Assembly (NCBI GenBank): GCA_018580065.1
Contig: GCA_018580065.1_4845.1
Source: a phage
Length of the DNA: 46,716 nt
Reading direction: 5' to 3' (one strand)
The stretch's first letter is position 1. Every line of letters starts with the position of its first letter. Both the position numbers and the translations under genes were made by a program. The notes under the pieces are model-generated. The model saw nothing but the letters and a program-made list of their open reading frames with translations, was not told the origin of the DNA and did no database searches. This document shows positions 39,898-42,423 of the stretch, piece after piece.

Positions 39898-39932
39898 TAT
39901 AATAAATGCTCCTTTGTGAATTTGATGTATAT

Positions 39933-39941
39933 TGTATCACG
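39933..39941 (-). promoter_or_regulatory. late-type extended -10 promoter (TGATACAAT)
   Basis: Reverse complement CGTGATACAAT, about 36 nt upstream of the tailspike ATG. Overlaps the end of the J-like gene. Confidence 0.45.
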
Positions 39942-42423
39942 ATGATGAGATAGCATATTCGTACATGTCGTCGCTGTATTCGCTCATCGTCAGTGTTGTC
40001 GTTCCGTCGCTCCCGGGATTCTTCTGGCTTACAACCCACAAAGTGGTGTCCAGTTCTTTCTCTGTGCTCAGCACGTAACGAGATTCAGATTGCACGCTTG
40101 TTCCGTTCCAGATATTTAGTTGAAAATCAGACGGAAGGCTGCAGGTGAATGTATGTAATCCAGTTACGGTGACTGGCAATCTGCCTGACACGCTGCCGTC
40201 AGCGCTGGTAATCACAACATAAAGATTATCATCAGCCGTGAGTTGCTCGCTGGTTGTGAATACGTTTCCGTTGCGCGCTTCAATAACGCCAGTCTGTTGC
40301 ACGTCATCATACATATCGACGACCTGAATCATGTCTCCTACGTTAACCCATTCTCCATCCGCCAGCGCTTTAATTTCCATGCTACGACGGGAGTAAATTA
40401 GTCGGCGACACTCAAGGATTGCCCGATCAACAGCCTGATAGCGATTGCGAACATAAAGCATGTCGAATTTCTTCGCTTTAGTTGGCTCGCCTTCTACGAT
40501 GCCACTATCTGTGATGCGATAGTAAACATTGGCCTGCTTATTCGTTGTTGGGTCACGATATTCAACGTTAACGCCATCGTAAGTGCCTGGAAGGCTGATG
40601 TCATAACTCAGCTTATAGCCGTCACTCTGCGTGTTTCTGGTATTGAATACAGTTGCCGGATATTCTCGTTTTTCATCACGCGAGAAGCTCATCACACCGT
40701 CATCCCAGAATGCAGTGACGCGAGCCGCATCACAGATTGTTTGCAGGCGTTCGCCAATACTTTTATCTTCATCGTCAAACGTGTAGTCGAAATAACCAAG
40801 TCGCTCATCAGGCAGGCTGTCGGCAATTTCATACAGCTTCACGATGTCGATGGTATTTTCTGGATTGCCAGCGGTAATAAGCCAGTTATGCAGAACAGCA
40901 TCAGCAAAGCTACGGGAAGGTGCAAGCGTGTAGCGGACCGTGCCAGTATCACGGTTGTATCCGATGGTATGACGCGTAATAAGTGCATTATATTTCCTGT
41001 CACGGCTGCCAGTTGCGTTCTCTGTTGCTCGCACGACAACCTTAACCACTGTGTCATCTGGATAAGACACGTTGGTACGGGTGACGATTGAATGAATTTC
41101 CTCAAGCTGAAGAATTGATGTGTCGGAACTGTTGTTTGTTCTCCGCATCTGAATCGCATAGCGACCAGTGCCAGCAGATGGGGTTAATTTGATCGTGTAG
41201 TAGAACGTATCGTTTCTGTCCACGTCCTGATAATAGTTCATCGACTGATACGTCCCTGGAATTTGAACGTTATCGTCGTCAATCTTCCACCACTCAATGA
41301 GCACACTGAAATCATTGCCGTCATTGGTCTGGTGTTGCAGATGCACCCAAAGCTGATCACCATCAATCGGTGAAAAGTACGGACCGGAAACAATAGGTTG
41401 GTTATCTGTCAGGTTAAAATAGGTGTTATTAATCGTCACGCCATTCAGTGATGATATTGGTGCACCTGAGTAGTTGATACTGTTAATAATAAATGTGTAC
41501 CAGTAGTTTACTGGTGGCAATCCACCATCGTTAGTTTCTGTTGCAGATACAAGTCTTCCTGATAGCGTAACGTTTTCGGTAACAGATGCACCTCCACCCT
41601 GCGCATAAGTGATATTCAGCTTAAACACCACATCATGAGGCATGGTTAGGTCAACGAAGTAATCAAATGCTGAATTTTTAGGTATCTTAACGGCAATCTG
41701 ACCTCCATCGAATTCCGTTTCTGTGACCGTGGTTGTTGTTGCCGTTTCAATGACCACTGGCGGAGGGTCGGTATCCAGTTCGTTTGGTCCGTAAAGCTCC
41801 TGCCCATCAACATCATCAAATGCGTAAGGTTCATACACAACCGGAATAACCTCTCCCGGTTGATAAATTGTATAGCTCGCACCAGCCAGTGAACCGAGGT
41901 TTGACTCGGAGTAACGCACAGAGGAAACATCATACTTACCAAGGCCAAAATTCATGAACTCGGTGACATATTTAATATTGTTGATGTATTCGAATAGTGA
42001 TTCCTGAAGTAAATCAGGAAACGCACGAATCTGCCCGAAGTTATCAGGGCGCGCCTCACCATTTCTCGCAATGTTCGTCTGCGATTTCAGGCTGGTATTC
42101 GGTGATGTTTTTGAGCTGGAATCCGTTTTTGGCGTTGATACTTTTGGCGTAAGAAACGAGAAAATCTTCGTTACTGGTTTCAGTATCGCGCCGATAAGGT
42201 CGCCGATTGCGCCTGATGGCTGACAATAAACGTTGACCACGTCGCCATCGTGCAGGCAGAAAGAAAGCTCATCATCTTCACCAAGCACTCTGCCATTTAC
42301 CGCAATTGAAATACTGGCTGGTAGATTTGACTTATTCAGCCACTTCCACAGGTTTGTTCCAGCTGGCACAATGCCCGTTTCTTTCGGTGTGCCCGGCATC
42401 TTCTGAATATGAATTACTGGCAT
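39937..42423 (-). CDS. central tail fiber / host specificity protein (J-like) with N-terminal gpI-like beta-grasp domain
   Basis: 828 aa, downstream of the M-, L- and K-like genes. N-terminal [10 protein letters not shown]...[25 protein letters not shown] resembles lambda tail assembly protein I. Confidence 0.8.

Follow-up and report, generated by a model that had tools for sequence, protein, structure and literature searches.

How a phage starts its late genes when they are spread over many separate units is a question raised by the tailspike gene of this genome, which is preceded by a short extended −10-like sequence without a −35 box. The first-pass annotation had listed nine minus-strand TGnTAnAAT sites of this kind, placed them in front of the late minus-strand units, set them against a TTGAC-type class in front of the early units, and concluded that this architecture implies a temporal switch. 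We searched for the 9-mer TGnTAnAAT (TGNTANAAT) on both strands of the whole genome of this Skatevirus-type phage (the window, 46,716 nt). All nine sites are present on the minus strand, eight of them exactly where they had been placed, and the ninth lies at 39931–39939 (TGATACAAT, with a G at 39940) and not at 39933–39941. The sites, with the units that they would head, are as follows.

101–109, minus strand: putative extended −10 TGATATAAT, before the operon for the tail-assembly chaperone, tape-measure and distal-tail proteins
1843–1851, minus strand: putative extended −10 cTGTGATATAAT, before the major tail protein gene (1090–1806)
5439–5447, minus strand: putative extended −10 TGCTAAAAT, before the operon for connector and tail-completion proteins (5408 down to 2432)
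11232–11240, minus strand: putative extended −10 cTGTGTTATAAT, before the head operon; gTGTGTTATAAT in Klebsiella phage KpV2811
16536–16544, minus strand: putative extended −10 tTGTGATAGAAT, before the lysis cassette (16509 down to 15171)
19523–19531, minus strand: putative extended −10 GTGATATAAT, before a mobile cassette and overlapping the TGA stop of the head-morphogenesis gene
21906–21914, minus strand: putative extended −10 TGCTATAAT, before the portal and head-morphogenesis operon
26065–26073, minus strand: putative extended −10 TGTTACAAT, before the putative small and large terminase operon
39931–39939, minus strand: putative extended −10 GTGATACAAT, before the tailspike gene (37987–39897); the site at which the question arose

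The chaperone gene downstream of the first site starts at 71 and wraps to the end of the window. The head operon encodes a 470-aa gp7-like protein (named protease/scaffold in the first-pass annotation), a decoration protein and the major capsid protein. The mobile cassette consists of an int-alpA RNA leader (19453–19518) and a T5orf172-type endonuclease gene (18531–19433); the Rfam model of the leader begins 5 nt after the hexamer of the 19523 site, which fits a transcription start there, and relatives have homologous cassettes at other genome positions and strands, each with a TGATATAAT or TGGTACAAT of its own.

Three further matches were absent from the original list.

42510–42518, minus strand: candidate internal extended −10 GTGATAGAAT, within the minor-tail gene, ahead of the J-like tail gene
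13762–13770, plus strand: putative extended −10 TGGTACAAT, 67 nt before a function-unassigned module (13838–15048)
10189–10197, minus strand: internal match, conserved (TGGTAGAAT in KpV2811), 400 nt from the next gene start

The motif was said to occur usually as GTGATATAAT, which is loose, as the exact 10-mer is found at two sites and seven sites, including 42510, match it with at most one mismatch. On the whole-genome scale the 9-mer is not enriched: the 12 matches compare with 8.68 ± 2.62 expected, and 15 of 100 whole-genome shuffles reach that number. The signal emerges only when intergenic DNA is tested alone. Eleven of the 12 matches lie on the minus strand (11:1), the same as the late coding strand, and nine of these 11 fall within, or overlap the edge of, intergenic DNA, which makes up 7.5% of the genome. 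Dinucleotide shuffles of the intergenic DNA give 0.53 ± 0.73 minus-strand matches, and none of 2000 reaches nine. The comparison with shuffled sequence that the first-pass annotation had proposed thus has a negative outcome for the genome as a whole and a positive one for its intergenic part. On the coding strand the distance from the 3′ end of the motif to the next start codon is 26–89 nt at the nine sites, in good agreement with the 27–90 nt given before. All eight virion, packaging and lysis units carry the motif, as proposed, but so do the mobile endonuclease cassette and one plus-strand module, and the site at 13762 shows that the class is not strictly limited to the minus strand.

The core of the sites was then defined by an information-content alignment of 16 sequences, nine from the window and seven counterparts from KpV2811. 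TG at −15/−14, one base before the −10 hexamer, is present in all nine window sites and in all seven counterparts, and A−11 and T−7 are invariant. The hexamers of the nine sites are TATAAT (five), TACAAT (two), TAAAAT (one) and TAGAAT (one). A purine stands at −16 in 15 of the 16 sequences, often giving TRTGn, and position −13 is mostly A. The class has the consensus (T/C)R-TG-n-TA-t-AAT. Information is high only from −17 to −7 and stays below 0.45 bit per position from −45 to −18. This bears out the earlier statement that no convincing −35 is present, as does a direct search, in which the best matches to TTGACA at spacers of 16–19 nt reach 1–4 of 6 positions, which we estimate to be the chance level for the best of four windows. 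The single 4/6 match, TTAACG at the 26065 site, is not kept in relatives.

Conservation follows the same pattern. At seven of the nine sites TG, A−11 and T−7 are invariant in every distinct relative sequence extracted; variation is seen in n, in the upstream spacer and in the flanks but not at TG, T−12, A−11 and T−7, which is the conservation pattern of an extended −10 element. At the lysis cassette, 33 distinct relatives keep TG, TA and the final T, with n and the upstream spacer varying in sequence and length. Mosaic junctions lie directly upstream of TG at the portal and major-tail sites: CATGnTATAAT is kept before the portal operon in 35 distinct relatives despite unrelated upstream DNA, and in the relatives L032 and L033 the DNA upstream of the 1843 site is swapped right up to TGTG. 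Where relatives have a small terminase of another type, TGTGTTAAAAT follows a terminator of the same kind as that at the 26065 site. At the tailspike, the motif is invariant in 18 distinct relatives and the synonymous sites just upstream vary. The motifs at 101, 1843 and 5439 are likewise unchanged in 34, 24 and 28 distinct relatives, respectively, although at some sites (101, 5439 and 11232) such invariance is weak evidence because the close relatives are about 90% identical. Three motifs also overlap coding sequence, namely the stop codon of the head-morphogenesis gene at 19523, that of the J-like tail gene (TGA) at 39931, and, at 11232, three codons (Cys-Tyr-Asn) of a conserved hydrophobic ORF of 40 aa (11217–11339), so part of their conservation could be coding constraint.

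A more distant comparison is offered by KpV2811, whose major tail protein is 52% identical and which has the motif at all syntenic places. Its counterparts are TGGTATAAT at the chaperone operon, TGATATAAT at the major tail gene, TGATAAAAT (23023–23031) at the connector operon and TGATACAAT at the tailspike, where a different leader follows. The candidate at 42510 has TGATAAAAT as its KpV2811 counterpart; three wobble positions in it are invariant in 28 relatives, and a G to A change keeps TAAAAT. For the plus-strand site, KpV2811 has TGTTATAAT 64 nt before the homologue of the module gene. The sites at 42510 and 13762 probably belong to the same sigma-70 extended −10 class. The lambdoid relatives Erwinia phage vB_EhrS_49 and Klebsiella phage 2 LV-2017, whose major tail proteins are 47–48% identical, contain 0 and 1 copies of the 9-mer per whole genome. 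They have a Q gene and a homologous, contiguous structural module, and the projected annotation of our genome holds no Q homologue. The homologous structural genes that form one contiguous late operon under Q antitermination there are divided here into approximately eight separately promoted units.

The other class of promoters consists of a near-consensus −35, a 17-nt spacer and a weaker −10 hexamer that is never preceded by TG. The early-type promoters are listed below.

121–149, plus strand: TTGACA-17-TAGATT, divergent from the 101 site, with 11 nt between the late TG and the early −35
1858–1886, plus strand: TTGACA-17-TAGATT, divergent from the 1843 site across a gap of 6 nt
5456–5484, plus strand: TTGACG-17-TATAGT, divergent from the 5439 site across a gap of 8 nt
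16554–16582, plus strand: TTGACG-17-CATAGT, divergent from the 16536 site across a gap of 9 nt
23608–23636, plus strand: TTGACG-17-TAGAAT
23541–23569, minus strand: TTGACC-17-TAGTAT, before a small-ORF cluster (23509 down to 21920)
27943–27971, minus strand: TTGACG-17-TAGATT, before a small-ORF cluster (27912 down to 26170) that includes an Stp-like peptide ORF
13782–13811, minus strand: TTGACG-18-AATACT, before a cluster (13651 down to 11395) with Lar-like and MarR-like genes

Four early promoters are thus arranged back to back with late ones. The unit from the 1858 promoter, on the plus strand, contains a tRNA-Met (2327–2403) and ends at a terminator (2409–2429), and that from the 5456 promoter encodes anti-restriction, ParB-like, HNH and RusA proteins. 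Architecture and function sort together: all eight virion, packaging and lysis units have TGnTAnAAT without a −35, and all ten TTGAC-N17 units are non-structural (Fisher two-sided p = 7e-4). The proposal of two promoter architectures is therefore well founded, and, with a −35 but no TG in the early class and TG but no −35 in the late class, the two rest on complementary determinants. The words AATCTAC (12 copies versus 4.6 expected) and GTCAAYA, which lie upstream of four late sites, were at first read as a late-promoter element. This reading was abandoned, since AATCTAC and GTCAACA are the reverse complement of the divergent plus-strand TTGAC-N17-TAGATT promoters, their spacing to the late motif is variable, and they are swapped in L032 and L033, both of which keep the late motif.

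Some late units also appear to be shielded from upstream transcription, as two minus-strand terminators indicate.

21888–21905, minus strand: terminator hairpin with T-run, ending the transcripts of the upstream small-ORF cluster
26107–26125, minus strand: terminator just before the terminase promoter at 26065

The 21906 promoter abuts or overlaps the first of these (21905–21888), and in most relatives the last bases of its TATAAT pair within the terminator stem. Across relatives this terminator is built from at least three different stems, with changes on both arms. For the read-through RNA the folding energy is −8.3 kcal/mol in the window and −10.9 to −12.7 kcal/mol in nearly all relatives, with one variant at −4.8 kcal/mol, compared with 0 to −3.9 kcal/mol for RNA begun at the 21906 promoter. 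Transcripts from this promoter would begin inside the hairpin loop, and so should escape termination. No terminator was found between the 13651–11395 cluster and the head promoter at 11232, indicating that insulation of the late units is not universal.

From sequence and conservation together, we consider it likely that the nine sites are extended −10 promoters of the host sigma-70 holoenzyme, a judgement that concerns their identity and role as promoters and not the switch. Sigma regions 2 and 3 would bind the TG and the −10 hexamer, so that sigma region 4 and a −35 box would not be needed. In this lineage the virion, packaging and lysis genes are split into approximately eight units with opposite-strand early modules, small-ORF clusters and terminators between them, and each unit would consequently need its own start signal. 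We infer that the two classes differ in timing, one early and one late. As the early promoters need the −35 and do without TG, a loss of −35-dependent initiation would shift RNA polymerase to the late units, and the insulating terminators together with the complementary determinants make a temporal switch plausible. The architecture allows such a switch but does not imply one, contrary to the original claim, because sigma-70 holoenzyme needs no modification to recognise extended −10 promoters that are near consensus (Mitchell 2003, as cited in PMC3950348).

If there is a switch, its agent could be encoded among the early genes. The first-pass annotation recognised no sigma or appropriator gene there, and this holds in sequence searches of essentially all non-structural ORFs: no sigma factor, anti-sigma factor or RNA-polymerase binder was found with PHROGs (40 ORFs), with Pfam (20 ORFs), or with two concatenated queries covering essentially all non-structural proteins against every PDB chain. 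Homologues of gp39, gp76, AsiA and other solved polymerase binders were also not found by sequence. Such proteins are small and fast-diverging, so one may be encoded here despite the missing homology. One gene is the sole family-level match to a regulator in the genome.

12564–13052, minus strand: MarR-like winged-helix gene, 162 aa

This gene was discarded as an essential switch since it is missing from the viable 37-kb reduced relative seszw_260L, which keeps all late promoters but lacks homologues of many of the small early ORFs of our genome; 65% of seszw genes are reported to be removable (PMC9825161). A 68-aa protein (23303–23509), the first gene of the early small-ORF cluster behind the 23541 promoter, is 53% conserved in KpV2811 and retained in the reduced seszw genome. 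Its structural model (pLDDT 78.8) is nearest to HTH domains of the NarL, GerE and ArdK type, with a best match that is not significant (E = 0.28). The searchable literature yielded no published transcription starts, transcriptome or expression data for this phage group, and nothing relevant on an earlier description of these promoters or of the 11-mer discussed below.

Three explanations would remove the sites from the ordinary sigma-70 promoters, and what remains of the mechanism, once the readings weighed further on are counted, is divided among them. That the 9-mers are chance matches, by-products of coding constraint or parts of terminators is hardly credible. The non-significant whole-genome count, the three sites overlapping stop codons or codons, and the stem pairing of the final TATAAT bases at 21906 in most relatives can be cited for it, but it does not account for the intergenic enrichment, the strand bias and the position before genes, for TG being kept though n varies, for syntenic conservation in a distant genus with unrelated flanks, or for the near absence of the motif from the lambdoid relatives. 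A phage-encoded or alternative host sigma, in the manner of T4 gp55, phiEco32 gp36 or RpoS, would be in keeping with a promoter class confined to late genes, which is how phage sigma factors usually reveal themselves. We judge it highly improbable, as the motif coincides exactly with the extended −10 consensus of sigma-70 and the PHROGs, Pfam and PDB searches returned no sigma-like ORF. RpoS favours C at −13, where these sites mostly have A. Dependence on an activator that replaces the −35 contact from upstream, as Mu C/Mor, P2 Ogr and P1 Lpa do, is very unlikely too. The missing −35 and the conserved AATCTAC and GTCAACA upstream of four sites would suit it, yet these words belong to the divergent early promoters, are absent from five of the nine sites, lie at variable distance (gaps of 6–11 nt here and 0 in KpV2811) and are swapped in L032 and L033 with TGTGATATAAT retained; the region from −45 to −18 carries no information in the 16-site alignment, and activator-dependent promoters are usually poor in core elements, whereas these are near-consensus.

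Three further readings accept the sites as promoters and differ in what, if anything, would change their use during infection. By analogy with T4 AsiA and P23-45 gp39, an unrecognised early protein may block sigma region 4 or the beta-flap, which we regard as quite possible though short of an even chance. That no dedicated switch exists is unlikely in our view, but deserves serious weight: unmodified host holoenzyme would use both classes throughout infection, and late expression would be delayed by poor initial competition of the extended −10 promoters and would gain later through genome replication. The late promoters are near-consensus (perfect TATAAT at five of nine) and need no activator, no regulator homologue was found in the PHROGs, Pfam and PDB sequence searches, and seszw_260L is viable without many of the small early ORF homologues. 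Against this, terminators that directly precede or overlap late promoters point to selection against early transcripts running on into late genes, and the clean sorting of architecture with function in two genera is hard to explain without a regulatory consequence. Somewhat doubtful is a third possibility, that an early phage repressor binds the 11-mer TGAYGTAGAWT and shuts the early promoters down, so that polymerase becomes available to the extended −10 class. The 11-mer overlaps the −35 or −10 of every early promoter and is absent from late promoter cores; its 12 exact copies all lie in promoter regions, 25 copies are found with at most one mismatch (8.5 expected), and all nine exact copies in KpV2811 are in early promoter regions. 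Conservation also extends beyond the needs of sigma-70, with TAGAWT right after the −35 TTGACG in five promoters. Candidates for binding TGACGTAGATT DNA are the 68-aa protein, with its weak HTH resemblance, and a highly conserved ParB-like protein (5981–6790). The former is first in an early operon, conserved in KpV2811, kept in the reduced seszw and HTH-like in its model, but its fold matches lack significance, and the MarR-like candidate is dispensable. Moreover, the 11-mer itself holds −35-like and −10-like hexamers, and two copies 17 nt apart form a promoter, so that paralogous promoter cassettes could explain it.

Returning to a −35-blocking early protein, a fuller proposal can be made for Skatevirus and Roufvirus, which as a whole we hold to be unlikely: a new family of small early proteins would disable −35 recognition by the E. 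coli/Salmonella sigma-70 holoenzyme and switch it to approximately ten extended −10 promoters, with terminators bypassed from within the hairpin loop. The protein would target the polymerase, or would mimic sigma region 4 on the TTGACGTAGAWT early promoters, and the late promoters would evade protective terminators by starting within the hairpin loop. Candidates for the −35-disabling protein are six ORFs that both genera conserve and that the reduced seszw genome retains (23303–23509, 11723–12049, 13287–13481, 702–845, 13838–14032 and the ParB-like 5981–6790).

Were the two classes temporally distinct, they would provide a clean enterobacterial model of a promoter-architecture switch in a common, tractable phage group, and would point to a new RNA-polymerase- or promoter-binding protein within a short list of conserved early ORFs. 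E. coli K-12 in which the O16 antigen has been restored supports growth of the BASEL phages Bas77–81. To our knowledge, a switch of this kind has so far been documented mainly for Thermus phage P23-45 and partly for T4. The promoter map also gives transcription-unit boundaries for the annotation and engineering of therapy-candidate Salmonella, E. coli and Klebsiella phages, and shows how many units, each with its own promoter, can take the place of the single late operon of lambdoid type.

Among known systems, the late promoters of Mu (C/Mor), P2 (Ogr) and P1 (Lpa) have no −35, a conserved upstream activator site and a weak core. Our sites share the missing −35 with these, of which Mu Pm is an activator-dependent example (PMC4287176), but have no shared upstream element and a near-consensus extended −10. 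In T5, sigma-70 holoenzyme reads all promoter classes and the small polymerase binder gpT5.026 shifts the early-to-late balance (PMC7472727). A likeness was drawn with promoter classes read by one holoenzyme, but the analogy fails, because the T5 classes differ mainly in the discriminator and not in −35 versus TG (PMC7472727). The late promoters of T4 (gp55/gp33) have TATAAATA at −10 where ours have TGnTAnAAT, and no gp55-like ORF was found here. T4 AsiA, which acts with MotA at middle promoters, prevents initiation that depends on a −35 but leaves extended −10 promoters usable (PMC3950348). AsiA is the type of factor that the first-pass annotation had suggested; no AsiA or MotA homologue was found in the genome, and neither a MotA-box-like nor an activator element is found near −30, with no information at −35 to −25 in the 16-site alignment.

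The core itself is closest to E. coli sigma-70 TGn promoters such as galP1, catalogued by Mitchell et al. 2003 (cited in PMC3950348), which have the same TG and near-consensus −10, no recognisable −35 and often TRTGn. In contrast to those, the sites described here serve one functional set of phage operons, are conserved across genera and are known from sequence. The closest parallel in layout is Thermus phage P23-45, in which host polymerase uses extended −10 middle and late promoters without a −35 and gp39 and gp76 act (PMC3950348, PMC5758890). Experiments thus far on record include a case of late promoters of this architecture escaping a phage protein that blocks use of the −35 (PMC3950348). 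Both are siphoviruses with late genes on extended −10 promoters without a −35 and another class of −10/−35 type. They differ in that the −10/−35 class shut off in P23-45 comprises host promoters, whereas here it heads the phage's own early units; in that no gp39 or gp76 homologue is found here by sequence and the host is enterobacterial; and in that the late units here alternate with early modules on the opposite strand and stand back to back with early promoters. The two-class promoter layout is already known from P23-45, and it predicts an early-to-late switch here.

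The window is the complete, circularly permuted genome of a Skatevirus-type siphovirus (46,716 bases), with ~90% identity to Salmonella phage LPST10, Escherichia phage Sa179lw, Shigella phage Sf11 and BASEL Bas77-81. The gene map combines the ORF list with the LPST10 annotation projected onto the window; the tail-assembly chaperone gene, with its start at 71, runs on at the window's end. The genes for virion, packaging and lysis functions occupy the minus strand in about eight units, split by the modules and clusters below. The AT-rich stretch 27913-28587 (about 670 bases), which separates the first early promoter from the replication module, holds no credible ORF; it might serve as an origin or for packaging.

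Segments splitting the late units
185-1060, plus strand, module
about 1887-2430, plus strand, module
5525-7977, plus strand, module
13838-15048, plus strand, module
16847-18501, plus strand, module
23671-24028, plus strand, module
28588-37743, plus strand, module
27912-26170, minus strand, small-ORF cluster
23509-21920, minus strand, small-ORF cluster
13651-11395, minus strand, small-ORF cluster

The first-pass annotation listed nine minus-strand TGnTAnAAT sites, here named by motif start (101 chaperone, 1843 major tail, 5439 connector, 11232 head, 16536 lysis, 19523 endonuclease, 21906 portal, 26065 terminase, 39931 tailspike). All nine proved real, with the tailspike site displaced by two bases to 39931-39939 (minus strand), and they lie 26-89 nt before start codons, close to the 27-90 nt claimed. 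TGNTANAAT has 12 matches in the window, all but one on the minus strand. Genome-wide this count is unremarkable (8.7 expected), and enrichment over shuffled sequence appears only in intergenic DNA: 9 of the 11 minus-strand matches fall in this 7.5% of the DNA, against 0.53 +/- 0.73 in intergenic shuffles, none of 2000 of which reached nine. The claimed lack of a -35 box is borne out, as with a 16-19 nt spacer the best hexamer agrees at 1-4 of 6 positions, and a 16-site alignment (window and KpV2811, a Klebsiella phage of another genus) confines the information to -17 to -7, with none at -45 to -18. In consensus the sites read (T/C)R-TG-n-TA-t-AAT. The simplest reading of these sequences is that the nine sites are host sigma-70 extended -10 promoters, a type read without sigma region 4 (PMC3950348).

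In the 24-36 close relatives compared at each site, TG, T-12, A-11 and T-7 are invariant, while n and the flanks vary. At the portal site CATGnTATAAT is kept in 35 distinct sequences (n = C, T or A; one with CGTGATATAAT) despite unrelated upstream DNA; at the major-tail site the upstream DNA is swapped right up to TGTG in two relatives, L032 and L033; and at the lysis site TTGTGATAGAAT is constant, the spacer to the neighbouring element differing in length and sequence. KpV2811, whose major tail protein is only 52% identical, shares the interleaved layout, and none of its syntenic places lacks the motif (chaperone, major tail, connector operon, head operon, lysis, portal, small terminase, tail fibre and an internal J-gene site). 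The nearest structural-module relatives outside Skatevirus and Roufvirus are the lambdoid temperate Erwinia phage vB_EhrS_49 and Klebsiella phage 2 LV-2017. Because their whole genomes, with homologous structural genes, hold 0 and 1 copies, the motif is not a by-product of those genes. In both, a Q antiterminator goes with a contiguous, uninterrupted late operon, which implies that late-gene control would have been rebuilt in the lytic lineage. Just upstream of the head operon is a conserved 40-aa hydrophobic ORF (11217-11339, minus strand; 56% identity in KpV2811, 100% in the relative seszw_260L), whose Cys-Tyr-Asn codons are the TGTTATAAT promoter motif.

The proposed division into two promoter classes by function largely stands: the extended -10 type heads 8/8 virion, packaging and lysis units, and 10/10 units of the TTGAC type are non-structural (p = 7e-4). 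Two exceptions also use the extended -10, namely the endonuclease cassette at 19523 and the plus-strand module 13838-15048 (site 13762-13770, conserved in KpV2811). The words AATCTAC and GTCAACA, which precede sites 101, 1843, 5439 and 16536, are the reverse complement of plus-strand promoters, the first four below, all near the top of the sigma-70-type matches within the first 20 kb.

Early-type promoters
121-149, plus strand, TTGACA-17-TAGATT
1858-1886, plus strand, TTGACA-17-TAGATT
5456-5484, plus strand, TTGACG-17-TATAGT
16554-16582, plus strand, TTGACG-17-CATAGT
27971-27943, minus strand, TTGAC-N17, small-ORF cluster
23569-23541, minus strand, TTGAC-N17, small-ORF cluster
13811-13782, minus strand, TTGAC-N17, small-ORF cluster
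23608-23636, plus strand, TTGAC-N17, other unit
28526-28554, plus strand, TTGAC-N17, other unit

None of the last five has TG before the -10 hexamer. Early promoters combine a strong -35 box with a weaker -10 hexamer and lack the TG; in late promoters the -35 box is missing, the TG is present and the -10 hexamer is near-perfect. Back-to-back pairs have 6-11 nt from the late TG to the early -35 box (0 nt at the KpV2811 chaperone site) and predicted starts 57-62 nt apart. Since this distance varies and the upstream side is replaced in L032 and L033, we argue that the paired promoters are probably independent elements. The unit under the predicted 1858 promoter (1858-2430) carries tRNA-Met (2327-2403) and a terminator; this small unit has its own early-type promoter and is flanked by the major-tail gene and the connector operon.

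An intrinsic terminator (26125-26107) lies just ahead of the terminase promoter; none was found ahead of the head promoter 11232. At the portal a hairpin and T-run (21905-21888, minus strand) directly follow the promoter's TATAAT, the elements overlapping within 21888-21914, and in most relatives the last three TATAAT bases lie inside the stem. The arrangement persists across at least three distinct stems among 35 relatives, both arms having changed (CCCATC/GATGGG, CCCTC/GAGGG, CCCC/GGGG). For read-through RNA the folding energy is -8.3 kcal/mol in the window and lies between -10.9 and -12.7 in nearly all relatives (-4.8 in one variant); a transcript starting at the seventh base past the hexamer has its 5' end in the loop and, in the computed fold, leaves the hairpin unformed. 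The arrangement would halt transcripts from the upstream small-ORF cluster yet pass those started at the promoter, and it suggests selection keeping the units apart.

With complementary class determinants and insulated late units, a promoter-class temporal switch is plausible. In Thermus phage P23-45, gp39 repositions sigma region 4 and silences -10/-35 promoters, sparing the extended -10 middle and late promoters, and T4 AsiA behaves similarly (PMC3950348). A comparable polymerase-directed block of -35 recognition is a possible, if tentative, route here. Repression of the early promoters through a shared 11-mer, TGAYGTAGAWT, would give the same outcome. Its 12 exact copies in the window all lie in promoter regions, often 17 nt apart, as -35-plus-flank or -10-plus-flank, and KpV2811 has 9; they could be operators or paralogous promoter cassettes, and we consider this route unlikely. 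That there is no dedicated switch factor is somewhat unlikely. Early leaders also share CATCGAAAC.

Examples of the 11-mer
139-149, copy
5457-5467, copy
5488-5498, copy
13768-13778, copy
16555-16565, copy
23609-23636, copies
27943-27970, copies

No sigma or appropriator gene had been recognised earlier, and database searches agree: PHROGs and Pfam on about 50 ORFs and PDB-wide sequence searches gave no homologue of a gp39/AsiA-type protein. The PHROGs/Pfam matches were only MarR-like (a winged-helix protein, 12564-13052, minus strand), Lar-like, anti-restriction, ParB-like, RusA, HNH and Stp-like. The PDB searches covered essentially all non-structural proteins and gave no significant match; a single match to a lysis protein (E = 0.021) was not meaningful. 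The viable, published 37-kb genome-reduced relative seszw_260L (MZ375345.1) lacks the MarR-like gene, the whole 27912-26330-type cluster, the RusA and HNH genes and the endonuclease, and retains every extended -10 promoter. The non-structural genes common to the window, KpV2811 and seszw_260L form a short list. It includes the first gene of the 23509 cluster, encoding a 68-aa protein with a small, helical predicted model (pLDDT 78.8) weakly resembling NarL/GerE/ArdK HTH domains (best E = 0.28). The ParB-like protein (5981-6790, plus strand) is more conserved than is usual for an early gene (81.5% identity in KpV2811, 99.6% in seszw) and is kept in the reduced genome. A 26-aa ORF in the first early cluster (27591-27671, minus strand) matches phrog_6763 (E = 2.5e-13), annotated 'activator of host PrrC lysyl-tRNA endonuclease', presumably the family of the T4 Stp peptide.

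The leader that separates the 19523 promoter from the T5orf172-type endonuclease gene (19453-19518, minus strand) matches the int-alpA RNA, Rfam RF02996 (37.3 bits, where the gathering score is 35.8; E about 1e-6), and was missed by the whole-window gathering scan. Relatives carry homologous promoter-leader-endonuclease cassettes at different positions and on different strands, both inner hairpins showing compensatory changes, and seszw_260L has two orphan leaders (34367 and 37128 of MZ375345.1).

No prior description of these promoters in this phage group turned up in the searchable literature; the promoter type is already known. The switch prediction is sharply testable and the phages are easy to work with. 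On every sequence-level criterion the late sites match the extended -10 class, whereas they depart from MotA-box (T4 middle), T4-late, activator-dependent late and Q-dependent systems. The classes here also differ from those of T5, which are told apart by the discriminator, and P23-45 provides the documented precedent for silencing one class while sparing the other.
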